From assembly GCA_965214775.1 (NCBI GenBank), contig OZ243974.1:2464001-2528000 (forward strand): a stretch of DNA of 64,000 nt, given 5' to 3'. The position numbers and the translations under genes are program-made. Of this stretch, positions 8,569-64,000 are shown one piece after another. The notes below the pieces were generated by a model, which saw only the letters and a program-made list of their open reading frames with translations, did not search any database and had not been told where the DNA came from. Source of the stretch: Nitrosopumilus sp. Lineage in GTDB: Archaea > Thermoproteota > Nitrososphaeria > Nitrososphaerales > Nitrosopumilaceae. How positions within the stretch are numbered: the stretch's first letter is position 1; each line of letters starts with the position of its first letter.

Positions 8569-8654
8569 GGCAGGATTGCTTAGCAAGGTTAAAGCGACAG
8601 ATTCAGGATCTGTATCTCTCGCCGAGATCGTGGGTTCAAGTCCCACTCCTGCCG
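8569..8654 (+). tRNA. tRNA with CAG anticodon (nominally Leu), long variable arm, G discriminator
   Basis: Acceptor GGCAGGA/TCCTGCC, D-stem GCT/AGC, anticodon arm ACAGA-TTCAGGA-TCTGT, T-arm GTGGG-TTCAAGT-CCCAC. Confidence 0.85.
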
Positions 8655-8718
8655 CTATTCTTGGTTGTCTTGGTTCAATATTAACTGTTAGTGGGGGATT
8701 CACGTAAGAGTTTACCCC

Positions 8719-9241
8719 TCAGGCGACGTTTCCAGTCAGGGTCTTGGCGACCATCTCACTCACGTTGCAACCTTGGGCGCGCCAGTTCATCGTGCATGTC
8801 ATCAGTACGGTGAACATCTCCATGCCCTCCATGGTACGGAGTCTCTGGAATATCTTGCGCGCAATTACGGACGGCCTCAGTATGCGCTCGGCTAGATTGT
8901 TGGTGGGCTCCATGCCCGGATACAGCACGAACGTGTACAGGTATTCTGAGGCATTCTCAAGCTTTGTGGCAAATTTTTTGCAACCTGCCTCCCTGAATGC
9001 TACGGCCAGCGCGCGTGTCTCGACTACCAGCATGTCGTGTTGTTGCTGCCTGACACCGTTCTTCTTCTCCTCCGGTGGTGGTGGCCCCAGCCCCTTGGCA
9101 AAAAGAAATTTTTTCTTGAGGGCATCATACAGTTCGTGGGCCTGCCGGGAAGTCTTGCCGGCGTCCTTGGCCTCCCGGAGTATGTGTGCCCAGCACCACT
9201 GCCTGATCTTGAATACGACATATACGCCGTACCCATCAACT
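8719..9241 (-). pseudogene. IS66 transposase, C-terminal half
   Basis: TVDGYGVY..QWCWAHILRE...EPTNNLAERILRPSVIARKI IS66 motifs. Confidence 0.88.
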
Positions 9242-9315
9242 GTGTCAGGTTTATCACTCCCAGGCAGCAGAACCCCCCTTAAATCAGAGCCGTTCATTGC
9301 AGGGGGGGAAGGACA

Positions 9316-10758
9316 GTGAGTGACACCGCAAAAAAGGCGTGGGGACGGCACCGGAGGCTGCTTGAGGATCCCGACGTGAGGCGGTGGTGCGACAACATCG
9401 CAAGGGGAAGCGTGGTGACGGCCGAGGTCAGGCTGGGCAGGCTCGGCATCTACTGTGAGAGGACCGGCACCACTCCCAGGGCCTTTGCGCAGGCCGGAGT
9501 CGACGACGTGAAGAAAGTGGAGGACATGCTGATGGATCACGTCTCGTTTCTGGAGGGCAGGGGATACGCGCCCTCGTACATAGCAGACATCCTCACGGCG
9601 CTGCGCTCCTGGCTGTCGTTCAACTACGTCAGGCTTGCCCGGAGGATAAGGATCAAGAATGCGGACATTCCGGTGACGCTGGAGGACGAAGTGATTCCGA
9701 CCAGGGAGAGGATCCAGGACGTGCTGGACTCGGCGCCGGCAAGGGAGCGCGTGTCGATATCGCTGATGGCCTTCTCAGGGGTGCGACCGCAGGTGCTGGG
9801 CAACCACCACGGCGAGGACGGCCTCAAGGTGAGGGACATCCCGGATCTGGAGACAGACGGCAACGACGTCTCCTTTGCCCGGACGCCTGCAAGGATAACC
9901 GTAAGGCCGCAGCTGAGCAAGGCGGGACACCAGTACTTTACGTTCCTGCCAGAGGCCGGGTGCAGGTACATGCAGGGATACCTCAGGGAGAGGATCGCGG
10001 GGGGCGAGAAGATCGGACAGGACTCGCCCATAATCACGTTCGTGAGGGGGTACCGCGCAAAGTCAGGCGGCAAGACGTGTCACGTGAGGACGGTCACGGT
10101 GGCCAAGGGGATCAAGGGCGCCTTTGGCATAATCATGAGGGAGCGGCCCTACGTCCTGAGGTCGTACTTTGACACGCAGCTGCTGCTTGCAGAGAGCAGG
10201 GGCGCGATGACGCACGCGTACCGCCAGTTCTTCATGGGCCACAGGGGCGACATCGAGGCAAGGTATACCACCAACAAGCACAGGCTTGCCGACGAGCTCG
10301 TATCGGACATGAGGGAGGCCTACGGGCGCAGCCAGGGGTTCCTCGTACCGGGCGCCGAGGGGGAGGAGGCGGCGGCATCAAAGGACAGAAGGGAGCTGCT
10401 GCTTGAGATGTGGAGGGAGCAGGCGCAGCTGTACGGAATCGACCCCGTGAAGATAAGGATAGAAAGGCAGGGGGCGTCATCATCATCGCAGGGCAAAAGA
10501 GCCGGGCAGGCAGCTGCCGCAGATGATCAGATAGGCGCCATCAAGGCGGCCATTCAAAGGATAATCAGGGGGGAGGGCGGGGCACAGCCACTGGCAGGCG
10601 GCAAAAAGCCATACGAGGGCAGGCTGGTCGACGGCGAGAAGGATCTCGTGGCGTGCATCGAGGACGGATGGGAGGTCATAAGGGAGCTGAACGGCGGCAA
10701 GGTCCTTCTAAGACGCAGCACCGCAGGCGGGAGGGCGCCCCGTCACCCCGGCCAGTGA
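9316..10758 (+). CDS. Tyrosine recombinase / site-specific integrase (archaeal type)
   Basis: SGVRP (R), LSKAGH (K), RPYVLRSYF (YxxR in place of HxxR), FMGH, EARY (Tyr nucleophile); N-terminal SAM-like region. Confidence 0.9.
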   Translation: MSDTAKKAWGRHRRLLEDPDVRRWCDNIARGSVVTAEVRLGRLGIYCERTGTTPRAFAQAGVDDVKKVEDMLMDHVSFLEGRGYAPSYIADILTALRSWLSFNYVRLARRIRIKNADIPVTLEDEVIPTRERIQDVLDSAPARERVSISLMAFSGVRPQVLGNHHGEDGLKVRDIPDLETDGNDVSFARTPARITVRPQLSKAGHQYFTFLPEAGCRYMQGYLRERIAGGEKIGQDSPIITFVRGYRAKSGGKTCHVRTVTVAKGIKGAFGIIMRERPYVLRSYFDTQLLLAESRGAMTHAYRQFFMGHRGDIEARYTTNKHRLADELVSDMREAYGRSQGFLVPGAEGEEAAASKDRRELLLEMWREQAQLYGIDPVKIRIERQGASSSSQGKRAGQAAAADDQIGAIKAAIQRIIRGEGGAQPLAGGKKPYEGRLVDGEKDLVACIEDGWEVIRELNGGKVLLRRSTAGGRAPRHPGQ

Positions 10759-10952
10759 CCCGGCCGGCCCTCCATTTTCTGGCACGCCATCCCGGACGTT
10801 GCGGAGGGCGGCGCGTTGATCAGCTCAGGCCGCCTCCATGATGCCTGCATCTGCCCCGTCCGAGATCTCCACGTGCAGACAGCAGTGGGGATTCCTCCTG
10901 AAATGCCAGACCGGACCGGATGACCACGATGCAACGCCATCCTCCCGGAAGC

Positions 10953-11021
10953 TGGCAACGGTTGCCAACTAGCGGGAACCTTTCTTCTCTGTAGTTGGCA
11001 ACGGTTGCCAACTAGCGGGAA
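10953..11021. repeat. 43-bp-period repeats with 23-bp palindromes, cluster 1
   Basis: TGGCAACGGTTGCCAACTAGCGGGAA at 10953 and 10996. Confidence 0.85.
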
Positions 11022-11151
11022 TCAGCAGATCCGACTGTACCTGAAGACGCGGCAGAACGCCACGTTTTGACGATCATCTGATCCGTAGCGAACAGGCACA
11101 AAGATCCATGAGGAGCCAAGCAGGGAGGAGAAAAAGGCGCATGTGTAACCG

Positions 11152-11440
11152 CCATTTGATCTCCGGCCTTGAGAGGATCAAAGCCGTGGTCGTCAAAGGT
11201 ATTGCCATGCTTGCCTGCACCACGACTCGGGATGCTCCGCCCGCATCACCCGTCCTGAGATCTTTTCCCGCAGGCCTTGCCCCCACAGGCTTTCATTGTC
11301 GTGCCGTTTGACTCGTCGTCCACCGGAAGAAGCTCCATGCCCCAAGCCACAGCCTGTCTGCAAGTCTCTTTGGGACGCCGGACACGGCTGCCCCGCTGCC
11401 GTGCCCACAGATGACCCCGGGCCATGCCTTTCGTACGGAT
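11152..11440 (-). pseudogene. Decayed AbrB-like gene, array module 1
   Basis: Minus frames give VRKAWPGVICGHGSGAAVSGVPKRLADRLWLG and ...LSRPEIK; frameshifted, stop lost; close paralog of module 2. Confidence 0.6.
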
Positions 11441-11559
11441 TCCGTGCGTCCAGAGCCTGGACAAACTCAGGGCGTGTCTTTGCAAGCTTTGCAAAAAAAC
11501 CTTGCAATCTTTGCAAAGACGTTCGTGGCAGGCTGACTCGCATTACCCTGTGGTTTCCC

Positions 11560-11850
11560 AAAAAACGAGACCAGAGCGCCCGGGCCCTCAACGAGGCCCC
11601 TGACCCCACACAGCCTTCCGGGGAGTCAGAGTCGTCCCGGTCCCTTATCTTCACCTGAGTGAAAAATTCCCTCAGGCCCCACACTGTCATTCCGGATCGA
11701 GGGCCGAGGCATTCTCGCGGGCTGAAATCACTACGATTAATCACAGATGACTGATCTCAAGACTTCACAATGATGTCATGTCTGGGGAAGGGGTCGAAAC
11801 TGTCAGAAAACATGGCAGGAACCAAAGCATGAGAAACAGAGTTGTAAACA
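11560..11850. repeat. Conserved hairpin-rich module core, copy 1 of 4
   Basis: GGGCCC hairpin-CTGACCCC-CCGGG..CCCGG hairpin-CACCTGAGTGAA..CCTCAG; recurs near 12988, 13915, 15278. Confidence 0.85.
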
Positions 11851-11901
11851 GCTGCCGGGAGCACGTAAGGTACAACATGACAAAGTGGAAAGAGATGTAG
11901 C

Positions 11902-11982
11902 GCGCACATCAAAAAATGGATCATGGTTTTGCCGCATCGTGCCTATTTCGATAAAAAACATCCCGTTTTCGACTGTGCGCAC
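11902..11982. repeat. ~80-bp dispersed MITE-like repeat
   Basis: GCGCAC...GTGCGC ends; inverted homologs at ~54397-54474 and, partially, 43797-43840. Confidence 0.6.
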
Positions 11983-12315
11983 CATGACCGGCCATCCTTC
12001 GGGCATTCTGCCTTACCGCATAATCCTGCCTGAAATTTGAAACTTGGCAAAAAAATCACCAAGATGATCAGCGGATCCCCGGCCAAGAGGGCCAGGGATC
12101 ATCGATGATGGGAGGTTGCCCCCGGGCGGCACTGCCTGCCGGGATCTTGGTGATCATGTCCACATATCGCATCCCGGGGATGGGGCAAGCTCTTGCCTTG
12201 GCGATCCCCCGATGATATCTGCGTTTATCCTGCGAGTTCCCCTCGGGCAGGCAGCAGTGAGTATTTTCCTAAAGCGCCAAAGGCCGAGCCGGATGACCGC
12301 AATGCAACACCGCAA

Positions 12316-12430
12316 TCTTCCCTGTAGTGGACTACAGTAGCCCACTAGCGGGAACTTTTCTTCCCTGTAGTGGACTACAGTAGCCCACTAGCGGGAACTT
12401 TTCTTCCCTGCTACTGGCAACCGTTGCATG
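12316..12430. repeat. 43-bp-period repeats with 23-bp palindromes, cluster 2
   Basis: TAGTGGACTACAGTAGCCCACTAGCGGGAACTTTTCTTCCCTG at 12325 and 12368, plus a degenerate TGGCAACCGTTGCA unit. Confidence 0.85.
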
Positions 12431-12438
12431 TGTAATCA

Positions 12439-12745
12439 TCATTTGATCTCCGGCCTTGAGAGCGGATCAAAGCCGGGATCATCAAAGGAATTGTCGTGTC
12501 TGGGCCTGTCCCGCGCCTTTGAGGGCGCGCCGTCCACACCGCCCGTCTTGAGATCCTTTTTTGCAAGCCTTGCCTTCATCGGCTTTGCCATTGTCGTGCC
12601 GTCTGACTCGCCCGTCAGGAGAAACCCCTCCCCCCCTCTATGCTCCAAGCCACAGCTTGTATGCAAGTCTCTTTGGGACGCTGGACACGACTGCCCCACT
12701 GCTGTGCCCGCAGATGACTCTGGGCCATGTTTTTTGTACAAGTTA
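12439..12745 (-). pseudogene. Decayed AbrB-like gene, array module 2
   Basis: QKTWPRVICGHSSGAVVSSVPKRLAYKLWLGA* then a frameshift into ..RLAKKDLKT..DPLSRPEIK*. Confidence 0.62.
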
Positions 12746-12822
12746 CATGCATTCAGAGCTTGAAACAAACTCAGGGCACGTTTTTGCAAGCTTTGCAAAA
12801 AAACCTTGCAAGCTTTGCAAAG

Positions 12823-12940
12823 GTAACAGGTTAGCCCCTGCCTAGAGTTGGAGTTGCATCCCTTGCCGGCCAGGCATGAAAATCACAACTGCAGGCAGAT
12901 TCATGCCTGATTGCTGCTTAGGCAGGGGCTAACCTGTTAC
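12823..12940. mobile_element. 118-bp MITE with IS66-like GTAA ends
   Basis: Perfect 22-bp TIR GTAACAGGTTAGCCCCTGCCTA; 8-bp TSD TTGCAAAG (12815-12822, 12941-12948); empty site visible in the paralog at ~11511. Confidence 0.92.
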
Positions 12941-12987
12941 TTGCAAAGACATTCGTGGCAGGCTGACTCGCATTACCCCGTGATTTT

Positions 12988-13280
12988 CCAAAAAACAAGA
13001 CCAGGATGCCCGGGGCCCTCAACGAGGCCCCTGACCCCACACAGCCTTCCGGGGAGTCAGAGTCGTCCCGGTCCCTTATCTTCACCTGAATGAAGAACTT
13101 CCTCAGACCCCACACTGTCATTCCGGATCGAGGGCCGAGATATCCTCGCTGGCTGAAATCATTACGATTAATCACAGAGGACTAATCTCAAGATTTCATA
13201 ATTATGTCATGTCTGGGGAAGGGGCCGAAACTGTCAGAAAACATGGCAGGAACCAAAACATGAAAAACAGAGTTGTAAAC
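12988..13280. repeat. Conserved hairpin-rich module core, copy 2 of 4
   Basis: Near-identical to 11560-11850. Confidence 0.85.
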
Positions 13281-13425
13281 AGCCATTGGGAGCACGTAAT
13301 ATACAACATGACAAAGTGGAAAAAGATAGGGCTTGACAGGTGTCACATATGGTCCAAAAGCCCCCAGATACACCAGATTCACGCCTCCCTTGTGGATGAG
13401 GAGAAAAGAGACGTAAGGCTGATGT

Positions 13426-13734
13426 CTATTTGATCCTGAATTTTTCCAAGGCACTCGTCCTAGGGGCGGCCTCTCCGGCGGGGGAGCCTTCGTTCTTTTG
13501 TCTGCATTCCCTCATTGCCTCATCAAAGACCCGCTCATATCGGTCAATGTCTGTGAGGTCCTTTTTTGACAGGCTCTTTCCACCCGGTGTCAGCACGATT
13601 TTGCCGCCAAGGTCGTGGAACCGTATGTGTTCGCCTGATCTCAAACCTAGGCTTTGTACCATCACGGACGGAACGACCACAAAAAATGAACAATTGTCCT
13701 TGATGCGGAGCCTTCGCTCATGTATTTTTTCCAT
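13426..13734 (-). CDS. AbrB/MazE-like DNA-binding protein, array module 3 (102 aa)
   Basis: ERRLRIKDNCSFFVVVPSVMVQSLGLRSGEHIRF swapped-hairpin pattern; CTTAAA TATA about 26 nt upstream of ATG; ends ..EKFRIK. Confidence 0.75.
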   Translation of the reverse strand: MEKIHERRLRIKDNCSFFVVVPSVMVQSLGLRSGEHIRFHDLGGKIVLTPGGKSLSKKDLTDIDRYERVFDEAMRECRQKNEGSPAGEAAPRTSALEKFRIK

Positions 13735-13769
13735 GCCGTCAGCAAATGTTGGATATTCATTTAAGACTC

Positions 13770-13855
13770 GGTGCCAAAGGCGCCAAAAAATGGCGCCAAA
13801 GGTGCGTTTGGTACCTGCCCGACAGGGGCCAAAGGCGCCAAAAAATGACGCCAAA
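13770..13855. repeat. Six GGCGCCAAA-type direct repeats upstream of module 3 AbrB
   Basis: Copies at 13770, 13779, 13792, 13825, 13834, 13847 (two blocks, 55-bp period). Confidence 0.85.
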
Positions 13856-13914
13856 GGCCCTAATCTCCGAGGGCCAGTAACGGAATTTCAACTCGCATTA
13901 ATACACAAAACACG

Positions 13915-14195
13915 AAAAACGAAACCAGAACACAAGGGCCCCCGAAGGGCCCCCTGACCCCCCACAGCCTTCCGGGACGCCGAACCGTCCCAGTCCCTTA
14001 TCTTTACCTGAGTGAAAAATTCCCTCATATCCCATTGAATCAGGCAATCGTCTTTGGATAGACAGGATGAAATCATGCCCGCCAACCGGGAATCATTACA
14101 GTTAACCCCGGATGATTGATTTCAAAATTAGTGTCATGTCCGGAGGAATATCAAGAACCATGGCAGGAATCAAGAACATGAAAAACAGAGTTTAT
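13915..14195. repeat. Conserved hairpin-rich module core, copy 3 of 4
   Basis: GGGCCC-CCGAA-GGGCCC, CTGACCCC, GGGACG/CGTCCC, ACCTGAGTGAAAAATTCCCTCA. Confidence 0.8.
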
Positions 14196-14567
14196 CAATT
14201 CTGAGGATATTGGCTATTTCCCTTTCTATCCTGTCATGATACATCATGTGTCTCGGAATCTTTTGAATCTTTTGCACGCCAAAAATCTGTAATTTTTAAT
14301 CACTCATTGGCTGTCATAGGAATCATCCGGGGAGATCATCTTCCCAAGGACAGGACGGGGGCCTTGTCGCCTGTGGTTGCAGGATGCCCTAAAAGCAGAG
14401 TCCGCAGCTCCGGATAAAGCCGTCCCGGGCATGTCAGATACAACATGGCAAAGCGGAAAAACTTGGCTTTGAGCAGTGTCACGTGTGGTCAAGGAACCCA
14501 AAGGTTCACGAGATCCTCGCCGGCCTTGACGAAAAAGAGGGACGGATGTCAGGACTGGTGTCATTTG
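14112..14567 (+). pseudogene. Decayed unknown ORF ('X') convergent with the next AbrB gene
   Basis: Peptide blocks conserved among modules (SE[DG]IGYFPFYPV..SRNLLN; HV[RI]YNM[AT]K; CH[IV]WS) interrupted by stops and frameshifts. Confidence 0.5.
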
Positions 14568-14827
14568 ATGTGGAGTTTTTTGAGCTTTTCTGCAGACAGA
14601 TCCGTCTCCCTCATCATGTCGTCCAGAACCCTGTCGTACTTGGTCCTGCCCTTCTCCGGGACATCTGCTGTATGCGCGGGGATCAGCTCCAGCCTGTCCG
14701 GGTGCGCCCCGAACTCGACGAGCTGGCCCTCGGCAATGCCGAGATCGTCTGCCAGCGCCTTTGGAACCGTAACGATGAGGCTGTCGCCCTGCCTGCGCAC
14801 CTTTCTGTAGTGTTTTCTTTCAGACAC
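14561..14827 (-). CDS. AbrB/MazE/SpoVT-family DNA-binding protein, array module 4 (88 aa)
   Basis: YRKVRRQGDSLIVTVPKALADDLGIAEGQLVEF classic AbrB motif; GTG start about 23 nt after CTTAAA; ends ..KKLHIK. Confidence 0.85.
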   Translation of the reverse strand: MSERKHYRKVRRQGDSLIVTVPKALADDLGIAEGQLVEFGAHPDRLELIPAHTADVPEKGRTKYDRVLDDMMRETDLSAEKLKKLHIK

Positions 14828-14879
14828 ATACTGTAACCGTGTTCTTTGATTTAAGGGCCAGAGTTTTTTTGCAAAATGT

Positions 14880-15222
14880 ACATAATGTAGCTTTTCACTA
14901 TTTTCAGGCTTCAAAAAGCTACATTTTCACTACTTCCGGTTCAACATAATGTAGCTTTTCACTATTTTCAGGCTTCAAAAAGCTACATTTTCACTACTTT
15001 TCAAATCACTATTTTCACTACTTTCACTACTTTTCAAATCACTATTTTCACTACTTTCACTACTTTTCAAATCACTATTTTCACTACTTTCACTACTTTT
15101 CAAATCACTATTTTCACTACTTTCACTACTTTTCAAATCCATACTTTCACTATTTTTTGCACTCACAAATCCATACTTTCACTATTTTTTGCACTCACAA
15201 ATCCATACTTTCACTATTTTTT
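14880..15222. repeat. TTTCACTA-based tandem repeats upstream of module 4 AbrB
   Basis: 33-bp unit TTTCAAATCACTATTTTCACTACTTTCACTACT about 4 times, plus duplicated flanking variants. Confidence 0.9.
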
Positions 15223-15277
15223 GCCCCATGATTTCAACTCCCACACACCAGACCTCTCGCATTATACCACCACACAC

Positions 15278-15550
15278 GAGAAACGAGACCGGCCCGCCCG
15301 GGCCCCTACGGGGGCCCTTGACCCCCGACAACCTTCTGGGACGTCAGAGCCGTCCCAGCCCCTTGAGTCCTACCTGAATGAAGAACTTCCTCAGACTCCA
15401 TACCATAGCTAAGCCGACGAGATAAAACCAACCATCCACGGGCTATCATTAACCACAGATAACCAATTTTAAAATCATAATATCATGTACGGAGGAATGT
15501 CAAGAATCATGACAGGAGTCAAATGACCATGAAAACACGGAGTTTACAAA
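15278..15550. repeat. Conserved hairpin-rich module core, copy 4 of 4
   Basis: GGGCCCC-TACG-GGGGCCC and CTGGGACG-N7-CGTCCCAG; homology to copy 3 continues to ~15655. Confidence 0.8.
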
Positions 15551-15706
15551 ATCTGAGGGTATTGGCTATTTCCCTTTCTATCCTGTCACGATGTACTACA
15601 CGTCTCGGAATCTTTTGAACTTTTTGCCCCTCAAGATTCATGATATTTTTAATCATTCTTTGGTTATCATCAGATCATTTGAGAATATTAGACTTTATGC
15701 GTAATC

Positions 15707-16900
15707 GGGGTTGTCCAAAAAATTTCCGCAAAACGACCGACAAGCTTATAGATCATGAGCGCACGGCGCCGAAAATGATTTTGATCTGCCGATCCTGGAT
15801 ATCCCAATGAGCAACAACAGGAAGGACACGGACTATAACCGCCTTTACGAGCAAAAGCGCAGGCAGGAGAGCTCCCGCAAGAAGAGGACAAGGAGGAACC
15901 TGGGAAAGATCGTACGCAGGGTGGCCAAGAAGATGGCCGCCGAAACGGGAATCGATGCCGGCCTTGCGTGGTCTGCCATACGCATTGCGATCCTCAGAAT
16001 CGAGAATCGCCTGTCCTACAGGAGGATGGTCACGCACCTGGAGTCAAACCCGGACGATCTCAGGAGATGCGGCCTGAGTCGTACGCTCTCCAAGTCGACG
16101 CTGCACAACAGGATGACCATGCTCTGGAGAATGGGCAAGGACTTTATGGACGAGGTCGTACTGGCCATGTCCGAAGGCGAGCGCATAGCGGACCTGCACG
16201 GCGACTCGACGGGATTCGGCCTCCGCAAGTACAAGAGCTGGAGCCACGCAAAACATGGGGAGGTGACCGGACACGACTTTGCAAAACTGCACGCAATTGC
16301 TGCAATCGGGGGCAAGATACTGTCATTTGAGGCCACGCCGGGCACGTCGGGGGACTCGCCGGAGTTTGCCCGCATGATGAGCCGCATCCCCAAGGGCGGA
16401 TACGGAATCGTGGCGCTGGATTCGGCATACGACTCGTACAAAAACTGCGAGCTGATTGCAAAGAGCGGCCGCGGACCTGTCATAAAGCCGGCAAAGGGGC
16501 ATGAAAAGCCACGCGGGTTTGGCGCCCGGGCCAGGATGCTGCAGTGGCTGCGTGACAGGCCAGACGAGTTCTGGCAGGCCTATCACAAGAGGAGCCAGGC
16601 AGAGTCCCTGTTCTCGGTAATGAAGGAAAGGGCTGGATCCGTCCTGCGTGCAAAGCTGGACGGAACCATCACTGTAGAGCTGTTCGCTCGCGTGTTGTGC
16701 TACAACCTTACGGTGTAAATCATCACAAATCCCGTACTGTTGGACCGCAACACTACCGTAAGGTATGGCCTGCATGGATATTTGCGTTGCTGTATGCGCC
16801 GTTCTGGCCGTCCGGGGCCGCCAAGTGCTCTATATTGCCGTCTGAGACTGCCTATATCGGGGGCAAATTGGCAGCCTGCGGAAAAAAATTGGACAACCCC
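15707..16900 (+). mobile_element. IS5/IS4-like insertion sequence
   Basis: TIRs GGGGTTGTCCAA.. / ..TTGGACAACCCC; no TSD seen. Confidence 0.8.
15807..16718 (+). CDS. DDE transposase
   Basis: GDSTG, KLHA, LDSAYDS, YHKRSQAESLFSVMK. Confidence 0.88.
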   Translation: MSNNRKDTDYNRLYEQKRRQESSRKKRTRRNLGKIVRRVAKKMAAETGIDAGLAWSAIRIAILRIENRLSYRRMVTHLESNPDDLRRCGLSRTLSKSTLHNRMTMLWRMGKDFMDEVVLAMSEGERIADLHGDSTGFGLRKYKSWSHAKHGEVTGHDFAKLHAIAAIGGKILSFEATPGTSGDSPEFARMMSRIPKGGYGIVALDSAYDSYKNCELIAKSGRGPVIKPAKGHEKPRGFGARARMLQWLRDRPDEFWQAYHKRSQAESLFSVMKERAGSVLRAKLDGTITVELFARVLCYNLTV

Positions 16901-16908
16901 ACACGCGG

Positions 16909-17949: not shown

Positions 17950-18000
17950 CAACCCCACACGCGGCGGTAGCCTTTTTAGAAACATGTCCGTAGTCCTGCC

Positions 18001-19413
18001 ATGATCAGGCGCCTTGCCGTAACAGGACTTTTCCTCGTTCTGGCAGCAGCTGCCGCTGCCACCGCGCACGCAGAGGTGCCACCGCCCCCGCTAAAGCAGC
18101 TTGCAGCCGGCGTCTCTCCCGACGGGGTCCTGTGCAGGGAGGGGCTCGTGCTGGTCGTGCGCGACACCGGCGGCGCAGTATGCGTGAGGGATAACACTGC
18201 AGAAAGGATGGGGTGGACCGTAACTATACCAGATGCCGGCACCGCCGAGTCCACGCACCTGCTGCTGCAGGCCGGCGGCCTGGTGCCAGTCGAGATTTCG
18301 GACTATTCTGGGATCGTGTCAGCAAACAACGACTTTGCAGTCGACTTTTACTCACACGTAGCCAGGCAGGAGGGCAAAAACATCGTATTCTCACCGTGGA
18401 GCATCTCCAGCGCCTTTGCACTCGCACACGAGGGGGCGGGGGGCGACACGAGGGACGAGCTCACAGATGCGTTCGGGTTTCCGGAGGAAAAACGCCTGCA
18501 GTTTGGCTCGGCAATGGTGGATCTGAACAGGCCCGACACAGAGTACCGGCTGTCGGTTGCAAACGCACTGTGGCTTGCAGAATGGCTCGAGCCGCTAGAG
18601 GAGTACGTGCAGACCGCAAGGATATACTACGACAGCGGCGTGGAGATGGTGGACTTTGGGTCCGGTGACGCGGTCAAGACGATTAACGGGTGGGTGTCAG
18701 ATAACACCGGCGGCAGGATAAAAGAGGTCATGGCGCCCGGCTCCGTCGGCGCCGCAACGCCGCTGGTCATAACGAATACAGTATACTTCAAGGGCGACTG
18801 GGTGAACACGTTTGGCGGAGGCAGTACCATCGAGGACTACCCGTTCTGGGCGACCCCCGACAAAAAGGTAACGGTTCCGATGATGTACACAAAGGATGTT
18901 GGCTACAGGCACGCAAACGTGGGCACGCACCAGATCCTTGAGATGCCGTACGTGGGCGACCGCATCTCCATGCTAGTACTGCTGCCAAACGAAAAGGGCG
19001 GGATAGGCGAGCTGGAGGGGATGCTGAGCGCCGAGAGCCTCGAGGAGTGGAAGGGAGATCTTGTAGATAAAATACTGCAGGTCTATTTTCCAAGATTCAG
19101 CCTTGACATCTCGTACAATCTAAGAGAGGACCTGTCCGCGATGGGCGTGACCTCGATCTTTGGCGAGGGGGCCGACCTTTCTGGCATCGCCGGGGACGAG
19201 CGGCTGCACGTGTCAGACGCAGTCCACAAGGCGTTCATAAACGTAAACGAAAAGGGGACGGAGGCCGGGGCCACAACTATAATAGCATCTAGTTCGTCAG
19301 GGCCTCCGACGTTTACAGCAGACCACCCGTTTGTCTTTGTCATACAGGACATGGAGACGGGCAACATACTGTTCATCGGAAGGCTGTCCGACCCGTCCCA
19401 GAGCGGCAGGTGA
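18001..19413 (+). CDS. Secreted serpin (serine protease inhibitor) with N-terminal Cys-containing domain
   Basis: Signal peptide, NIVFSPWSI, NTVYFKGDW, hinge EKGTEAGAT, FTADHPFVFVI..ILFIGR. Confidence 0.93.
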   Translation: MIRRLAVTGLFLVLAAAAAATAHAEVPPPPLKQLAAGVSPDGVLCREGLVLVVRDTGGAVCVRDNTAERMGWTVTIPDAGTAESTHLLLQAGGLVPVEISDYSGIVSANNDFAVDFYSHVARQEGKNIVFSPWSISSAFALAHEGAGGDTRDELTDAFGFPEEKRLQFGSAMVDLNRPDTEYRLSVANALWLAEWLEPLEEYVQTARIYYDSGVEMVDFGSGDAVKTINGWVSDNTGGRIKEVMAPGSVGAATPLVITNTVYFKGDWVNTFGGGSTIEDYPFWATPDKKVTVPMMYTKDVGYRHANVGTHQILEMPYVGDRISMLVLLPNEKGGIGELEGMLSAESLEEWKGDLVDKILQVYFPRFSLDISYNLREDLSAMGVTSIFGEGADLSGIAGDERLHVSDAVHKAFINVNEKGTEAGATTIIASSSSGPPTFTADHPFVFVIQDMETGNILFIGRLSDPSQSGR

Positions 19414-19805
19414 GCCGGCACATGGTACGCCACATGTGGGCGTGCCGGCACACGCTGTCCTGCACGGCCGCTGCAGACTATGGATGCACAGCTATCCCGG
19501 CAGGCAACGGCTCGCCCTGGCCGCCTTGATCTACGTCATGTGTGTGGTGCCCAGCTTGGACAATCACTTATCCGTGCGATCCCGACCTCACCGCTGCCCA
19601 GCATGCTGTCCGAACACCATCCTCCGGTGCATCCGTGAGTCATATCTGGGAAGACTGCACCTGTGAGAGGTCAAGGTCGTTGCAACATGCAGGCACGAAT
19701 CTTGTTGCAAGATGATTTGGGCATGGCTGAAAACCGGGGTGGCCCAGCCGATTACCTGCGCCCCATGCAAACGTCTTTTATAAAACACCATGATAATCTT
19801 AAGGC

Positions 19806-22800
19806 ATGAACCAAGCAGTCGCATGTCTTGCCATCCTGCTGCCAGTCTTGCTCTCCGTTCCGGCTTTGTCATTCTCAGAGTCAGGTGAGGTACAAGACAA
19901 CCTGTACAAGTTCGATGACGGCTTTTATGAAAAGATCCAGCACATGCAGAACATGACATCGCATGGAAGGGCAGACAGTTCGGACAACGCAACACTGGCT
20001 GCACATTCCGTAATAATAGTCACAGATGACGGATACGAAGACGGATTGGAGCAAACGCTAAGGGAGATGGGCTCGCGGGACATATTCAAGTCAAAGAGCC
20101 TGGACTTTCTCATCGCCGACGTCCCGGTGAACAGGATAGCGGAGCTGGCAGGCTATGATCACGTCTACAAGCTTGGAGACGGACATGGGGAAATGACATC
20201 GTCGGCATCACCGTCAAGACTACCGCCGGCACTGACACTGGCGCAGGCCAAGGCCGTAGTTGGCGCCACCAACGTAGGCTCCGACGTGTATCCGTATACT
20301 GGCAGGGAGATCACCGTTGGACTGATTGGTACGGGCACGGATTTTACACACCCTGATCTGCAAAACAAGAATGCTGCCTCGCTCCTATGCACCCAACTCC
20401 AATGCATTAATGCTTCACTGCTGGCCGGTACCAACCGTGCCACTTCGACTTCCGCAGTCATAGCATCCAACAGCACCAACCCCGCAATGGCGGGGATGGC
20501 ACCAGACTCCATGATACACGACGCTCGCTTAGCTGGCGTGACTCACGTGGGTGAGAGTTCCGTGGCAAAAAATACCTTTGCCAGGGCACTTGATGAGATG
20601 ATGACCAGCGATATCACTGTGGCACTTTCAATACTGGCAAATACTGAAAGTTATGGATGCAACGACTATTCTGCCCTCACCATTGTCACCGACAGGGCGG
20701 TACACGAGGGCTTGAGCTTTTCCATGGCCATCGGAAACAAACCAGATAACACGGCGGCGTTTCCCCCGCCACACATACAGAAGCTGGCATGCGGCTTTAA
20801 CTACATCAGCGCAGGTGCAGTCGACAAGGACAGAATCCTGTGGAGTGACAGCGTTCCCGGACCTGCCCAGTTCAACACCCCTGGCGGCGACTCACCCAGA
20901 ATAAAGCCCGAGATAACCGCAATCGGCGTAGATCTTGACCTTGCACGGGCCGCAGATCGCAGAAATATGATAAACCGTGACTATGAAATAGACAGCGGCA
21001 CGAGCTTTGCCACCGCCTTTGTGGCAGGCGCCAGTGCCCTGATCCTAGAAAAGCAGCCGGACTACCGGCATCTGGAGATAAAGTCCGCACTGCTGCTCGG
21101 CGCAGACTGGCAGGCAGACACGCCGGCGACGGCAGCAGACTATGATAACCGGAGGGCCGGGATATACGATACCATGAACCGGTACGGCTTTGGCATACTC
21201 AACGCAACGAGATCACTTGACTATGCCAACGACAACCAGTACCCGAACGTCCTGTACGACCAAAGCTCAGGCGACTTTGATGCAAACTCGTACAGGATCT
21301 ACGCAGGCGCAGGCGAGCAGGTAAAGGTGCTGCTGTCCTGGCTGGTGCATCCGAGAGGCACGGTACTGTCGCCCACCCTTCCAATCGGCAGCCCCCACAT
21401 CCAGCTTCCAAGCCAGTACCACAACTATGACCTGGCGGTGACGTTTCCCAACGGCGTGACAAGGACGAGCGACTCTGACGTCCAGAACAACGAGTTCGTC
21501 GTGTTTGACGCGCCGGAGACCGGATTCTACACCATCACCGTGAGCTCCGACGGGACGCTGACGACTGCCATCGGCGAGCCGTACACCCTGGCAAGCACGC
21601 ACGGGATAGACAAGTTCCCATACGACCTCGTCGTCCCGGTCACGGAGTTCGCAGACGACTTTGAGTCGGACCTCTCAAAGTGGGACCTGTCCGGCGACTC
21701 TGACTGGGAGATCGGGGACCCCGACGAGGACGTGCCCGGCGAGAACAGCCGGACAAACCAGGCGCTCATATCGAGCAACTGCGACACTGACTGCATCGCC
21801 ACGACATCCTCGACGTTTGACACGCAGGACGCGCTGACCGTCTCCTTTGACAGGTTCGTTGACTCCAGCGTCGATGCCGGGGAGGGCCTGTTTGTAGAGT
21901 ACTCTGCAGATGGAACCAACTGGATCAATCTTGCAAGCTATACCCACAACAACCGCGAGGACAGCGGCTCGTGGAGCAGCGAGTCCCTGTCCCTGGACAT
22001 CACGGAGGACACCGCAAAGATCAGGTTCGTGGCAAAGTCCAGCTCCTCAAGCGAGCACGTCGAGATAGACAATGTTGCAGTCATGGAAAGTGACGGAGGC
22101 GGACCCTCGGACACGACTGACCCCGTAATCACCGCGCCCGCCGACGTCACGGCCGAGGCCACCGGCGTGCTGACTGCCGTATCCATAGGGCAGGCCACTG
22201 CCATCGACAATCTGGATCCCGACCCGGCGATAACAAACGACGCACCAGAGTCGTTTCCCATAGGCGACACCACAGTCACGTGGACTGCCACGGATGACTT
22301 TGGCAACACGGCCACTGCCACCCAGACTGTTACGATACAGGACACCACGCCGCCCTGGATCACGGCGCCTGCCGACCGTACCGCAGAGGCCACCGGCGTG
22401 CTGACCGTGACATCCATAGGGCAGGCCACTGCCATCGACATTGCCGATCCCGACCCCACAATAACAAACGACGCACCCGCGTCGTTCTCGCTAGGCGACA
22501 CGGTAATCACATGGACTGCCACAGATGATTCGGGCAATGCGGCCACTGCCACCCAGACTGTTACGGTTCAAGATACCACGCCGCCGAGCATCACGGCGCC
22601 TGCTGACCATACAGCAGAGGCCACCGGCGTGCTGACCACAATATCAATAGGGCAGGCCACTGCCACCGACAATCTGGATCCCGATCCTGTCATCACGCAC
22701 GACGCACCAGAGTCATTCCCGCTCGGCGACACCATAGTGACATGGACTGCCACAGATGACTTTGGCAACATGGCGACTGTCACCCAGACTGTTACGATAC

Positions 22801-25292
22801 AGGACACGACACTGCCGAGCATAACCGCACCGCTAGATGTCACAACCGAGGCTTCCGGCGTGCTGACTGTAACATCCATAGGGCAGGCTACGGCCACCGA
22901 CAACTTGGATCCCGACCCGGCAATCACAAACGACGCACCGGAATCGTTTCCCCTAGGTAGCACGACAGTCACGTGGACTGCCACGGATGATTCGGGCAAC
23001 GCGGCCACTGACACCCAGACTGTTACGATACAGGACACGACACTGCCGAGCATAACCGCACCGCCAGATGTCACAACCGAGGCTTCCGGCGTGCTGAGTA
23101 TAATATCAATAGGTCAGGCCACGGCCACCGACACTGCCGATCCCGACCCGGCAATCACAAACGACGCACCGGAATCGTTCCCGCTCGGCGACACCATAGT
23201 GACATGGACTGCCACGGATTCCTCCGATAATGCCGCCACGGCCACACAGACCGTGACGATACAGGACACCACGCCGCCGAGCATCACAGCACCCGCCGAT
23301 CATACGGCCGAGGCTGCCGGCATCATGACAATCCTGAATGCCGGCGACTATGGGACTCCCACCGTGTCTGACATTGCCGATCCCAGCCCCACAATCACAA
23401 ACGACGCACCGGAATCGTTCCCGCTCGGCAACACCACGGTAACGTGGACTGCCGCCGATTCCTCTGGCAACGAGGCGACTGCCGCCCAGACCGTTACGAT
23501 ACAGGATACGACGCCGCCTGCCATCTCCGGCCTGCGCAATATATCCGTGGATGATCCGGCGGGCCGGGGAATGGAAGTCAGCTACGATGCGCCTACAGCT
23601 ACAGACCTCGTAGATGGGGCCGTGGCAGTATCATGCACGCACGAGTCAGGATCGACGTTTGCGCCCGGATTCACCGAGGTGTCATGTATGGCGACAGACG
23701 GCTCTGCAAACTCGCTGCGGGACTGGTTTATCATACACGTGGACGCATCTGACGCCATCCTGGACGTCTCGCAGACCGTGAGCACGGGCCGGTCCACGTG
23801 GAGCGTCACGGGCCCGGACAGGATATTCGCGGGGCAGACCTTCGAGTATACCGTAACCCTCGAGGACGGGGCGAGGCCCAGGGAGGAGGCCCTTGCCGTG
23901 TACAGCGCTGCGCCGGATACGCGGTACCTCGGATGGCATGATCCCGATGCAGACTGCCAGACTATATTGTGCGCGGGGTTTCCCGAACAAAAGCACAACA
24001 CGTACAAGATAGCCAGTGACGAGGACTCGCCGTATACTGCCATGCACAACAAGATGAAAAAGTCCAGATCCAGCCACACCATACTGTTGCAGCCGGCAGC
24101 CGACGCGCCGGCGGGGGCGCAGGCCACAGTCGGCATGCTGGACGCCAGCTACAACCCGGTGGGAGGCATACCGGTAACGGTGATGCCGCCGTCCACGAGG
24201 ACGGTAACGGACGGGGACACCACCTGGAGGATCACGGGCCCCGACAGGATATTTCCGGGACAGACATTCGAGTATACCGTGACCCTTGATGGCACAAGGC
24301 ACCAGCACGACGCCCTTGCCATATACAGCGACTCGCTTACGGTGGACGACTTTGGGGGACTCGCGGATGACTCTGCATGCGGCACGACCGTATGCACTGA
24401 CTTTCCCGGGCAGCGGCGCCGCACGATGGAACTTGACAACCACGCAGGCTCCTCATACGACGTGAGGTATCACACGATCAACGCGCCCGGCTCCCAGTAT
24501 ACGATACTGCTGAGGATCGCCGACGACGCAGACGCGGGAGGCACGTTCAGGGTAGGCCTAGTGGACGGGGACGGAAGTCCGATGGGCGGCATACGGGTCA
24601 CGATCGCCGATCCCGTGACCGTAACGGCCCCCTATGAGGAGCTCGTGGCAGGCCTGTCCTTTGAGGGCAGCTTGGCAGATATCACAGGGGACAACAACGG
24701 CACGGCTGCAGGGGGTATCTCATACGTGGAGGGCAGGATAGGCAGGGGGCTGCAGCTTGACGGCTCTACGAACGTCACCCTCGCGGGGGAGGCCGACTTT
24801 GACTTTGGGCGGACCGACCCGTTCAGCATTGCGTTCTGGCTCAGGCAGGATGCGCCCGTCAACGGCAGCACCATGATAATGTCCAAGGCAGAGTCGTTCG
24901 GCCATACCGGCTCGTACGTGTGGGTATGGGGAGGGGCGCCCAACAGGGTCCTGCTTTCGATACACGACAACTCCACGTTCATAAACGTGCATACACCGCA
25001 ACACATGAACATGTCAGACGGCGCCTGGCACCATATCGCATTCACGTACGACGGCTCGGGCGCAAAGGAGGGACTGAACGCGTATATCGACGGCGAGCAC
25101 CGGGACTATGACCACTTCCGCAGGGGCCAGGGGCTGGCAGGCGACACGACAAACGACCATGCGTTTACGGTGAGGACCACCAGCTGGGGGGACCCCGACA
25201 GGATCGACTCGGTGCTTGACGAGCTGCGCGTGTACGGCGCCGAGCTGTCGGCCCGGCAGGTGCGGCTGCTGCATGCGGCGGGCCTCGGCTAG
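19806..25292 (+). CDS. Giant secreted S8 (subtilase)-like protein with 7 HYR repeats and C-terminal LamG domain; probably catalytically dead
   Basis: Signal peptide; VGLIGTG..HPDL, KPEITAIG, SGTSFATAFVAG; DTTPPxITAP repeats; WHHIAFTYDG..LDELRVY LamG. Confidence 0.88.
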   Translation: MNQAVACLAILLPVLLSVPALSFSESGEVQDNLYKFDDGFYEKIQHMQNMTSHGRADSSDNATLAAHSVIIVTDDGYEDGLEQTLREMGSRDIFKSKSLDFLIADVPVNRIAELAGYDHVYKLGDGHGEMTSSASPSRLPPALTLAQAKAVVGATNVGSDVYPYTGREITVGLIGTGTDFTHPDLQNKNAASLLCTQLQCINASLLAGTNRATSTSAVIASNSTNPAMAGMAPDSMIHDARLAGVTHVGESSVAKNTFARALDEMMTSDITVALSILANTESYGCNDYSALTIVTDRAVHEGLSFSMAIGNKPDNTAAFPPPHIQKLACGFNYISAGAVDKDRILWSDSVPGPAQFNTPGGDSPRIKPEITAIGVDLDLARAADRRNMINRDYEIDSGTSFATAFVAGASALILEKQPDYRHLEIKSALLLGADWQADTPATAADYDNRRAGIYDTMNRYGFGILNATRSLDYANDNQYPNVLYDQSSGDFDANSYRIYAGAGEQVKVLLSWLVHPRGTVLSPTLPIGSPHIQLPSQYHNYDLAVTFPNGVTRTSDSDVQNNEFVVFDAPETGFYTITVSSDGTLTTAIGEPYTLASTHGIDKFPYDLVVPVTEFADDFESDLSKWDLSGDSDWEIGDPDEDVPGENSRTNQALISSNCDTDCIATTSSTFDTQDALTVSFDRFVDSSVDAGEGLFVEYSADGTNWINLASYTHNNREDSGSWSSESLSLDITEDTAKIRFVAKSSSSSEHVEIDNVAVMESDGGGPSDTTDPVITAPADVTAEATGVLTAVSIGQATAIDNLDPDPAITNDAPESFPIGDTTVTWTATDDFGNTATATQTVTIQDTTPPWITAPADRTAEATGVLTVTSIGQATAIDIADPDPTITNDAPASFSLGDTVITWTATDDSGNAATATQTVTVQDTTPPSITAPADHTAEATGVLTTISIGQATATDNLDPDPVITHDAPESFPLGDTIVTWTATDDFGNMATVTQTVTIQDTTLPSITAPLDVTTEASGVLTVTSIGQATATDNLDPDPAITNDAPESFPLGSTTVTWTATDDSGNAATDTQTVTIQDTTLPSITAPPDVTTEASGVLSIISIGQATATDTADPDPAITNDAPESFPLGDTIVTWTATDSSDNAATATQTVTIQDTTPPSITAPADHTAEAAGIMTILNAGDYGTPTVSDIADPSPTITNDAPESFPLGNTTVTWTAADSSGNEATAAQTVTIQDTTPPAISGLRNISVDDPAGRGMEVSYDAPTATDLVDGAVAVSCTHESGSTFAPGFTEVSCMATDGSANSLRDWFIIHVDASDAILDVSQTVSTGRSTWSVTGPDRIFAGQTFEYTVTLEDGARPREEALAVYSAAPDTRYLGWHDPDADCQTILCAGFPEQKHNTYKIASDEDSPYTAMHNKMKKSRSSHTILLQPAADAPAGAQATVGMLDASYNPVGGIPVTVMPPSTRTVTDGDTTWRITGPDRIFPGQTFEYTVTLDGTRHQHDALAIYSDSLTVDDFGGLADDSACGTTVCTDFPGQRRRTMELDNHAGSSYDVRYHTINAPGSQYTILLRIADDADAGGTFRVGLVDGDGSPMGGIRVTIADPVTVTAPYEELVAGLSFEGSLADITGDNNGTAAGGISYVEGRIGRGLQLDGSTNVTLAGEADFDFGRTDPFSIAFWLRQDAPVNGSTMIMSKAESFGHTGSYVWVWGGAPNRVLLSIHDNSTFINVHTPQHMNMSDGAWHHIAFTYDGSGAKEGLNAYIDGEHRDYDHFRRGQGLAGDTTNDHAFTVRTTSWGDPDRIDSVLDELRVYGAELSARQVRLLHAAGLG
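22110..23750 (+). repeat. Intragenic HYR-domain repeats (x7)
   Basis: ~78-aa units DTTxPxITAP..VTWTATD..GN. Confidence 0.85.
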
Positions 25293-25620
25293 CTTGTGCG
25301 ATCACGGCGGGCCCGGCCTGCGGCAAGATCCTGTACTGGCCAGTAAGGATTCTCGAAGTGTTTCATGATCAGACGCCCCTGCAAACGGACGATGACATTG
25401 AAGGATTTGTGACTGCCGGCATGCCCCACAGGCGGCACTGCCTGCCGGGGCCTTTGCTGCCGCGCATTCCGCGCGGTATCTTCCGGAGGGGGCAAGGCTC
25501 TTGTCGCGTATTGGTAGAACGCAATCCAAAACAATTTTAAGCCGACGCATCCGTTGATACGGTGAGCATCTTGATGGGATTCAAACGTGTGGGGGTTTCA
25601 TCGCTTGGGTGTGGTAAACC

Positions 25621-26550
25621 GTAACTGGTTTATCATAATACGGAAAGTTCGTATCCACTACGACCCTGGCCCTGCTGGGTGCGGCCAGCGTGTGGACGCC
25701 GGTCGTGGAGCCGTCCTTGTTCTTGCCCACTATTACCCATATGCGGGCCGTCCTGCCGTTGTATGGCATGGCAGTCTCGTTAATGTGCAGATAATCAGAA
25801 TCCTTGATGGCCTGCTTGATACCCTTTACGCTGGGCTTTATTGCCTTGGTGCAGGCCCTCAGGCACTGCAACACGCCTGCCTCTGAGACATCCATGTCCA
25901 GGATTTCTGAGCACATTGTGGCCGTTGCCTGTATGGAGGCAGGTGCCATGTGCATTGAGGTTATCATCCCCGTAATGTTTGGTCCAAACTCGGTTCCCTG
26001 CACGTTCCAGTCCCTGTCATCCTCGATACACACGTGGCCGCAGTCGGCGCATTCGCGTTTGTATGCGGTGTGCTCTGTCGTGACCGGTTTGGGCTTCTTG
26101 GGGATCTCAGTCACGGTCTTTGAGAACAACTTTTCGGGCTTTTTCATGTTGGTGCTGTTGCACTTGTCGCACTTTTTGGGGCAGTGCTTTACAAACTCGG
26201 TCGGTTTTCTCTTGTGTGATACTCCCTTGTGTCCCGGTTTGCGGCCCGGTTTTGCCTTTGCAGATGCCGGTACGTTGCCTGATGCCTTTGCAGCAGCAGT
26301 CTTTTTCTGTCTGGTAGGAATCGAGTTCTGCGAGGAGGGGGTGTGCGGGTTCTCGTAATATTTGATGTGCTGTTTGAGCTGCTGGTTTTCTGCCGTCAGC
26401 AGCACGACCTGTGTTGCAAGCTCGGCCTTCTCTGGCATCTTTGACTACTACCTGCTGCAGATCGGCGATGGTTTTCTCATTCTTTCGGCACTCGGCTATG
26501 AGACGTGCAATCTCGTCGCGCAGTATCTTGACCTCCGAGCCTGATGACAT
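25621..26550 (-). pseudogene. IS66 transposase, N-terminal half
   Basis: Coiled coil, PSS..KPGRKPGHKG, CDKC/CADC Zn finger, LHINET (DET Asp changed to Asn); frameshift near 26440. Confidence 0.87.
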
Positions 26551-26677
26551 GCATTTTCCTAGGTACTACTATCTTATAGATCGGGTGGTCAGAAAGAATT
26601 CACCAAATAGGTAAGGGGTAAACTCTTACAGATGGGCAGTTCAAATCCTATTTATAATCTCGTGATCGCGATACGCT

Positions 26678-63408: not shown

Positions 63409-64000
63409 TCAAGAAGCAGCCTAGTATGCAGCAATCTCGTCCCGTTCGGGTCAAATTCTGATGGCAGTCTTTACAGGGGTAACCCGACTCATGGCGGCTG
63501 CACGCGGATCTGCAGGCGGCCTAACCTGACCTGTGTCAAACTTGGAGCCGTTTTTCCGGGAACTTCTGGGAAGGCCGGATGGACAAATTGACGGATTGAT
63601 GGATTTGTTTGCAGTCTCTACGTTGGTTATATGTTCATTTTTGCCACATTAACATTGCCCCTGAGAGATTATCCGAGGTTGAAAGCCGTGCAAGTCCGTG
63701 CCCTGATTTTTCTGTGCATCTGTCAAGTAATTTTACATACAGACAACCTGTCATTTGTAGGCACTAATCGATTTGATGCAGGTCCATTCGTGCATGATCC
63801 GAATCTGCCAATTTCGAATCAACACTCGTGGGTGCCCAACTATGCCGGGGCCGTCGCCTGGCGATCTGCTGATCTTCTCAACCTGGATGCTATCCCCAGA
63901 ATGATGCACAAAAGCAGGGCTATGACTCCCGCGATTGCCGCGCTCGTGAGCAGATCCATGCCGGAGCCGGCCCGTACCGGAGCCGGCCACTCATCTGGCC

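Follow-up and report, generated by a model that had tools for sequence, protein, structure and literature searches.

To our knowledge, tyrosine integrases are usually held to require identity within the overlap of the two recombining sites, and the known exceptions, CTnDOT, NBU1 and Tn916, are bacterial. For IntDOT, the integrase of CTnDOT, 2 bp of identity are described as needed at the first cleavage, mismatches being tolerated in the rest of the overlap (PMC2817482). Site-specific elements are also described to integrate at times at a mismatched look-alike site, where they can be trapped (PMC8371274). The thaumarchaeal cryptic integrated elements surveyed by Krupovic et al. (2019; PMC6563490) have attachment (att) repeats of at least 8 bp, with a median of 17 bp; the targets given in the main text of that survey are tRNA genes, intergenic regions and 3' ends of genes, and the terms "IS66" and "MITE" (miniature inverted-repeat transposable element) do not occur in that main text. 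Here we describe an integrative element in a 64,000-nucleotide stretch of Nitrosopumilus sp. DNA (contig OZ243974.1 of assembly GCA_965214775.1, positions 2,464,001 to 2,528,000), referred to below as the window. The element interrupts the transposase gene of an IS66-family insertion sequence (IS), and the 6-bp spacers at its two junctions differ.

We consider it likely, as one joint reading, that positions 9242-25620 of the window are a 16.4-kb thaumarchaeal integrative element of the "cryptic integrated element" type and that this copy results from secondary-site integration at an IS66 look-alike with a mismatched spacer, by the mechanism proposed below. What is new is that a site-specific integrative element of an archaeon can be seen at a secondary site, with mismatches in the overlap, while its twin occupies the cognate site in another genome.

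A precise insertion in an IS66 transposase gene

The genome to which the window belongs (G000) consists of one 2.83-Mb contig, against which the in-genome searches were run. The interrupted target, the two junctions (attL and attR) and the element ends are arranged as follows, in window coordinates.

8704-9241, minus strand: left part of the target, an IS66-family IS, with the C-terminal half of its transposase gene (Pfam DDE_Tnp_IS66, E = 2.2e-19); terminal repeat from 8704 onwards; identity to intact copies 97-98%
9232-9257, plus strand: attL core, with target arm 9232-9241, spacer GTGTCA 9242-9247 and element arm GGTTTATCAC 9248-9257; the spacer is the same as at both junctions of the G041 copy described below
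9248-9278, plus strand: left terminal inverted repeat, about 31 bp; 22/31 positions match the reverse complement of 25590-25620
25590-25620, plus strand: right terminal inverted repeat, ending in the arm GTGGTAAACC
25611-25636, plus strand: attR core, with element arm 25611-25620, target-native spacer GTAACT 25621-25626 and target arm GGTTTATCAT 25627-25636
25621-26629, minus strand: right part of the target IS66-family IS, with the N-terminal half of its transposase gene (Pfam DDE_Tnp_IS66 and zf-IS66); terminus located; contiguous with the left half in intact copies

An earlier note, made from the letters of the window alone, had described this insertion, and both junction strings of its 11-6-11-like core were present in the window exactly where it had placed them. 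When each IS66 half was compared with G000 by BLAST, base 9241 was found joined directly to the equivalent of 25621 in eight full IS66 copies. All ten IS66 copies listed were uninterrupted across the insertion site, and eight of them carried the exact empty-site string ..CAACT/CGACT-GTAACT-GGTTTATCAT.., as the note had predicted for intact copies. The reading frame that it expected from the join, YYDKPVTVDGYGVY, was found in all four intact copies translated. The two halves are 97-98% identical to one common set of copies; nothing in these identities suggests that they come from two different IS66 variants, a possibility that the note itself had raised. Pfam assigns both halves to DDE_Tnp_IS66, and the terminal inverted repeats of the IS are present.

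Since the uninterrupted IS66 copies display the empty site, the insert can be given as exactly 16,379 bp (9242-25620). Its position is ambiguous by 2 bp, because GT is common to both spacers. The insertion was made without target duplication, attL and attR sharing only this GT as a direct repeat. GTGTCA at attL and GTAACT at attR agree in their first two bases (GT) and at position 5, but not at positions 3, 4 and 6; the earlier note was right that the spacers are heterologous, with a count of four differences in six that has to be corrected to three. The target sequence GGTTTATCA agrees with the left-end arm of the element at 9/10 positions, so the target does supply one half-site, as had been proposed. 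With the element spacer, on the other hand, the IS66 target agrees at just three of six positions (1, 2 and 5). attL retains the spacer of the element and attR that of the target. The imperfect inverted repeats of about 30 bp reported for the ends were also recovered (17/25 and 22/31 positions matching); among 200,000 random anchored 25-mer pairs, only five reached 17/25. The insertion is precise, of the integrase type, and located at a look-alike core with heterologous spacers.

A tRNA-Leu(CAG) is located at 8569-8655, 48 bp from the IS66 terminus, and the IS66 copy itself may occupy or adjoin another integration hotspot. Rfam recognised two tRNAs alone in the window and gave no match for the repeats or the element ends.

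A near-identical copy at a cognate site

A scan of one genome per species revealed a 100% identical integrase (L020) in G041, a Nitrosopumilaceae metagenome-assembled genome with a 3.2-Mb contig. The element copy in G041 shows 99.92% identity to that of the window over 7,671 bp and 100% over 3,864 bp, the sole missing part being an rve-type IS at 16909-17947. In the best non-repeat matches of a 16-kb stretch, chromosomal identity between the two genomes is only 67-74%, against 99.9-100% for the element (L020, L092). Judging from these comparisons, the element must have been transferred horizontally, and very recently so. An orthologous empty locus was not detected in G041, where the matches to the flanks of the window element are all repeats.

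The junctions of the G041 copy read ..TTTGAATT GTGTCA GGTTTATCAC.. (attL) and ..GTGGTAAACC GTGTCA GGTTTGGAAT.. (attR), with the spacer GTGTCA at both, inside an 11-bp direct repeat. Because GTGTCA is present at both junctions, we infer that the core of the attachment site of the element (attP) is GTGGTAAACC-GTGTCA-GGTTTATCAC and that its cognate target has the same spacer. The inverted ends of about 31 bp make up the two arms of this core. The flanks of this copy together form one copy of a MITE-like repeat, which is about 120 nt long and has inverted repeats at its ends. Its termini are CAGTCTTC.. and ..GAAGACTG, copies being found, for example, at 63450-63580 of the window and at 292821-292955 of G000; Rfam gave no match for this repeat. 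BLAST returned 111 matches to it in G000, of which 84 span the attachment site, and among these the 6-mer at the site varies (GTTTCG in 15, GTTTCA in 14 and GTGTCA in nine copies). The same repeat flanks an orphan right end in G000 (R5), and uninterrupted copies there show that GTGTCA is native to the repeat. As far as these comparisons indicate, the MITE-like repeat is the cognate attachment site of the window element.

The spacer GTGTCA at the attL of the window is the element's own attP spacer as well as the native 6-mer of the cognate target, and for that reason it need not be an arbitrary coupling sequence. It would be such a sequence if the element were a Tn916-type transposon, whose staggered cuts take up 6 bp of flanking DNA as coupling sequence and which, as a rule, neither depends on overlap homology nor is strict in its choice of target. 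On this particular point the G041 copy does not discriminate: GTGTCA being native to the cognate repeat, its carry-over from the last site is formally indistinguishable from an own spacer.

The copy in G041 also bears on whether an integrase made the window insertion at all. With identity at the crossover of just 2 bp, in a genome that is rich in IS copies and holds orphan right ends, the junctions might owe their origin to illegitimate joining, to joining at the GT microhomology, to a series of rearrangements or to an assembly error. However, the element breaks exactly at the attP core known from G041, the target offers its 9/10 arm match at the exact adjacent position, and both sides are base-precise. 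A run search with 121 nt across attL listed ten runs, of which four were compared with 8900-25950 (three as short Logan contigs). In one run (X3), which may be the source sample, a contig covers 9214-9756 with no difference; only 28 nt of it lie on the IS66 side, fewer than the 31 required, and it lends weak support to the attL junction and against misassembly. We regard an origin without the integrase as extremely unlikely.

A divergent tyrosine recombinase

The gene closest to the left end is the following.

9316-10758, plus strand: integrase, divergent tyrosine recombinase of 480 aa, recognised by profile, predicted fold and conserved residues

This open reading frame (ORF) starts 68 bp inside the left end of the element. 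Its product matched no Pfam family even at E <= 10, Phage_integrase and the curated integrase models included, and gave no relevant NCBIfam match, no PHROG match and no single-sequence PDB match. A family profile built from 37 homologues, in turn, matched archaeal XerA (4a8e, E = 1.6e-7; 5hxy, E = 1.5e-3). The AlphaFold model of the protein (pLDDT 85.8) had 45 PDB matches at E <= 1e-3 in Foldseek, the best being XerA, IntI4, Cre and XerH, with a probability of 1.00 over 325-368 aligned columns. Tn1549 Int was a weaker, distant fold match (E = 1.8e-3). A TAL effector in the same list (7e-4) was considered spurious. Residues R157, K202, Y279, H309 and Y317 are invariant in the alignment of the 37 homologues and R282 is kept in at least 90% of them; by their spacing and context, these would represent the catalytic R-K-H-R-H/W-Y set of tyrosine recombinases, with Tyr (Y279) replacing the first His. 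On the predicted fold, the 480-aa protein is a two-domain (core-binding plus catalytic) tyrosine recombinase overlooked by the curated models, in agreement with the assignment made in the earlier note.

In a word-indexed search, 1,400 of the 8,000 scored candidates were relatives at E <= 1e-3, mostly from Nitrosopumilaceae, Nitrosotalea and Nitrososphaera, and a few of the entries were labelled "site-specific integrase". An exhaustive search gave 1,655 cluster representatives at 50% identity, 422 of them at E <= 1e-30, and by these matches the family appears widespread in Nitrososphaerota and Bathyarchaeia.

Sister elements and the usual mode of integration

Searches with tblastn revealed paralogues of the integrase in G000: three of them, B, C and D, share 78-79% identity with it, and about eight others share 40-45%. 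With nhmmer models of the element ends we found four left ends (window, B, C and D) and six right ends (window and R1 to R5) in this genome; a fuzzy inverted-repeat search added no left end. All family members share one plan: right arm, 6-bp spacer, left arm and, just inside the left end, the integrase. B and R2 delimit an element of 34.6 kb in an rve-type IS gene, with the spacer CTCTCC at both junctions and a 7-bp direct repeat. CTCTCC occurs once in four of the seven uninterrupted IS copies listed for this target; the other three differ at 2-3 positions. C and R3 delimit an element of about 70 kb at the 3' end of a tRNA-Ala(GGC), with matching spacers and a 12-bp direct repeat. Thus, of the four complete attL/attR pairs, three have an identical 6-bp spacer (B/R2, C/R3 and the G041 copy) and the window pair is the exception. 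This comparison shows the normal mode of the family to be integration in targets with the same 6-bp spacer, leaving direct repeats of 7-12 bp.

The remaining ends have no partner: R1 (G000 position 1774257), R4 (797464) and R5 (2043881) are orphan right ends, and D lacks a matching right end. R1 retains the target-native spacer CTGCAA while R2 has CTCTCC, the two right ends being 98% identical (manual count on the nhmmer alignment) and their spacers sharing positions 1-2. D retains the target-native CGCTCC, and its closest relatives carry CCTTCC or CCATCC. These two junctions hint that the window event is not unique, if the attP spacers assumed for both are right. D and R4 were considered as one pair and rejected, their flanks coming from different rve-IS subfamilies with best matches to different copies. 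A D-type left end in G041 (L116) was likewise rejected as a source for the attP spacer of D, as it adjoins the right end of another element family and not plain target.

The sister elements also bear on the Tn916-type alternative introduced above. That alternative is favoured by the many kinds of target used by the family (tRNA-Ala, at least three positions in rve IS genes, the MITE-like repeat and IS66) and by the hints of heterology at R1 and D. However, R1 and D are partnerless and their attP spacers are assumptions, while three of the four complete pairs, the same element in G041 among them, have identical spacers; moreover, neither an excisionase nor conjugative transfer genes were detected with Pfam or PHROGs among the 25 ORF translations scanned, as the earlier note had stated. 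We consider a Tn916-type transposon unlikely. The note had favoured an integrase that works without overlap homology, in the manner of Tn916. That description suits the window event, with its heterologous 6-bp spacers. As a general property of the integrase it is not supported by the other three pairs, and no Xis or transfer genes of the Tn916 kind were found in that scan. The interpretation given in the note thus holds in part.

Right ends outnumber left ends not only in G000 (six versus four) but also in G041, where 18 matches to the right-end query, about ten of them covering the terminal part, compare with four left-end matches. The orphan right ends could stem from deletions, from rearrangements or from elements mobilised in trans. 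A second family of element ends, ..GGATCCAATATGGTG.CGGTACCC, follows subtilase paralogues at G000 1226327-1226409, 1448470-1448551, 409035-408955 and other positions, and at L021 9850-9932. One such end adjoins a tRNA-like sequence, and in G041 another is immediately adjacent to a D-type left end, an arrangement suggestive of tandem integration. Also in G041 (L038), two left-end-like repeats at 9719 (plus strand) and 18416 (minus strand) face each other 8.7 kb apart, one of them degenerate; both are preceded by GGGGG.C.GAACCCGCTG.GG, where ARAGORN found no tRNA.

A probable crossover in a mismatched overlap

The two copies provide a natural matched comparison, one element being found at its cognate site with identical spacers in G041 and at a mismatched site in G000. 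The comparison reveals which junction inherited which spacer and limits the crossover to 2 bp: because attL carries the spacer of the element and attR that of the target, the genetic crossover of the window event, as read from the junctions, must lie within the GT that both spacers have at positions 1-2.

This conclusion depends on the spacer being the crossover region. All intervals of 5-8 bp lying from -8 to +8 around the spacer were compared in the four complete pairs. None was free of mismatches in all four, and at 6 bp the spacer alone was clean in three of the four. If the true overlap lay instead inside the right arm (GGTTT..), the window event would be fully homologous and the spacer would not be the crossover region. 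Such a placement draws on a 5-bp interval starting at the right arm, which is mismatch-free in the window, C/R3 and G041 pairs, and on the nine identical bases that attL and attR of the window share there. Tyrosine recombinases, however, have a known stagger of 6-8 bp, and no interval of that size is mismatch-free in those same three pairs; B/R2 has two mismatches even in the 5-bp interval. The arms are, in addition, symmetric about the 6-bp spacer, and an overlap in the right arm predicts the target's spacer at attL, where the window has that of the element. We therefore hold this placement to be very unlikely.

With the overlap in the spacer, the window event is best read as an indication that mismatches in the overlap can be tolerated by the enzyme, without implying that this is its norm. 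A perfect cognate site is lacking in G000, where the only occurrence of GTGTCAGGTTT is the attL of the window itself and GTGTCA is found in only nine of the 84 site-spanning copies of the MITE-like repeat, with weaker right arms. GTAACTGGTTTATCA, in turn, occurs at nine places in G000, the attR of the window included. The absence of a perfect site and the weaker right arms of the GTGTCA copies suggest that arm recognition can outweigh spacer identity.

We propose that the integrase would cleave and exchange the first strand at the GT side, where the two swapped bases can pair. The event might then be completed by (a) a second, homology-independent exchange that leaves mismatches, which replication would segregate, in the manner of IntDOT, or (b) through replication of the Holliday junction or its processing by a host resolvase, a route known from Xer-dependent phage integration. 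The junction sequences would fit both routes equally. Excision of the window copy should be impaired, because attL and attR now differ in spacer. Such hindered excision is described as a route to element capture in a review of archaeal recombinases (PMC8371274).

A bolder interpretation, which we put forward tentatively as a possibility, is that tolerance of heterology, as in IntDOT, is a natural property of the integrase family: two identical base pairs at one edge of the 6-bp overlap would then suffice, and arm recognition would outrank the spacer. If true, tyrosine recombination independent of homology would be documented in archaea for the first time, and multicopy IS genes and MITEs could serve as landing pads for movement between distantly related hosts.

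Several observations weigh against the secondary-site reading. It concerns a single event, with putative cleavage positions and an attP spacer deduced from the G041 copy and R5. The IS66 site scores 16-17 of the 26-bp attP core, a level that is not exceptional, 496 positions of G000 reaching at least 16; for this reason the choice of the IS66 site is only partly explained. No 8-bp target-site duplication is visible at this IS66 copy or at four others, so that the two halves cannot be proven by such a duplication to be one IS copy. The free form of the element was not seen: a 25-mer from the left end had no match in metagenome contigs and none in viral contigs, and neither a circle joint nor an empty-site joint was present in the runs compared with 8900-25950, where the raw-read run X9 gave no reads.

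Content of the element

Apart from the integrase and the terminal repeats, the following features were annotated in the element.

13426-13854, minus strand: small AbrB/MazE-like DNA-binding protein, weak match (Pfam MazE_antitoxin, E = 0.0049, under the curated cut-off)
14561-14914, minus strand: small AbrB/MazE-like DNA-binding protein (Pfam MazE_antitoxin, E = 1.8e-8)
15706-16810, plus strand: IS with a DDE_Tnp_1 transposase (Pfam, E = 2.7e-14) inside the element, also in the G041 copy; repeated copies in G000; within the continuous 99.9% match to L020
16909-17947, minus strand: rve-type IS (Pfam rve, E = 4.7e-13), inserted in the element after its arrival; absent from the G041 copy; seven G000 copies at 99.6-100%
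18001-19413, plus strand: cargo serpin (Pfam Serpin, E = 1.9e-106)
19806-25292, plus strand: cargo, secreted subtilase of 1828 aa with HYR repeats and a LamG-like domain (Pfam Peptidase_S8, HYR in seven stretches, Laminin_G_3)
25521-25607, plus strand: sub-terminal block starting GCAATCCAAAACAATTTTAAGCC, conserved among the family's six right ends in G000

The two AbrB/MazE-like proteins could, as a speculation, serve as directionality factors. The 87-nt block that starts with GCAATCCAAAACAATTTTAAGCC is kept across subfamilies too, and a CCCCCCTTAAA block is kept at all four left ends; these end blocks may be arm-type binding sites or parts of the integrase promoter in attP. Direct repeats of 17 bp (16892-16908 and 17948-17964) border the rve-type IS and are unusually long for a target duplication. 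The region 10833-15690 is internally duplicated (for example, 11139-11896 resembles 12426-13327), includes short multicopy repeats at 11896-11986 and 12820-12940, and shows 77-95% similarity to regions beside other elements, at 577-581 kb and 1216-1220 kb of G000.

The serpin and subtilase cargo has passed between distantly related ammonia-oxidising archaea in the very recent past, with no transfer genes in evidence. The family repeatedly lands in transposase genes and MITEs, which are safe multicopy targets, yet this habit conceals its elements from detection based on direct repeats. The attP, MITE and IS66 sites together make a directly testable set of substrates for an uncharacterised archaeal integrase family.

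Comparison with known systems

By analogy, the closest mechanistic parallel of the window event appears to be IntDOT of CTnDOT, and in outcome the event resembles Tn916. The element belongs to neither family, since heterology is exceptional (one of four pairs) and the accessory modules are absent. As in the Bacteroides element CTnDOT, the overlap is mostly heterologous with about 2 bp of identity at one edge, and the target shares a motif of about 10 bp with an element end. NBU1-type integrases are related to IntDOT and behave in a similar way. Unlike in IntDOT, heterology was found here in one of four complete pairs and is not the rule, the shared arm motif lies across the spacer from the two identical bases, and the spacer has 6 bp where the IntDOT overlap has 7. 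The host is moreover archaeal, no conjugation module was found among the translations scanned, and the protein family is very distant.

With Tn916, Tn1545 and Tn1549 the window element shares a tyrosine integrase, 6-bp heterologous spacers at its junctions and the absence of a target duplication. It differs from them in that no Xis or transfer genes were found in the same scan and in that its G041 copy and its sisters normally have identical spacers. The targets of the Tn916 group are bent AT-rich DNA, whereas those described here resemble the arms of the element. In Xer-dependent elements of the CTX-phi type, one strand is exchanged beside the homologous edge of the central region and the junction is resolved by replication; a similar single exchange followed by replication is possible for the window element, although the latter encodes its own integrase, is double-stranded and has 16 kb.

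The thaumarchaeal cryptic integrated elements have in common with the present element a tyrosine-type integrase, internal IS insertions and a lack of viral or conjugative hallmark genes; their short att repeats have a counterpart in our matched copies (7-12 bp). In contrast to the elements presented in the main text of PMC6563490, the window copy has no att repeat beyond GT, and the IS66 transposase gene, the rve IS genes and the MITE-like repeat are not among the targets given there. Finally, the event is like those at the secondary att sites of lambda and of archaeal SSV1, where integration occasionally takes place at a look-alike site with mismatches. It differs from these in having three mismatches in a 6-bp overlap and in being matched by a cognate-site copy of the same element in G041.

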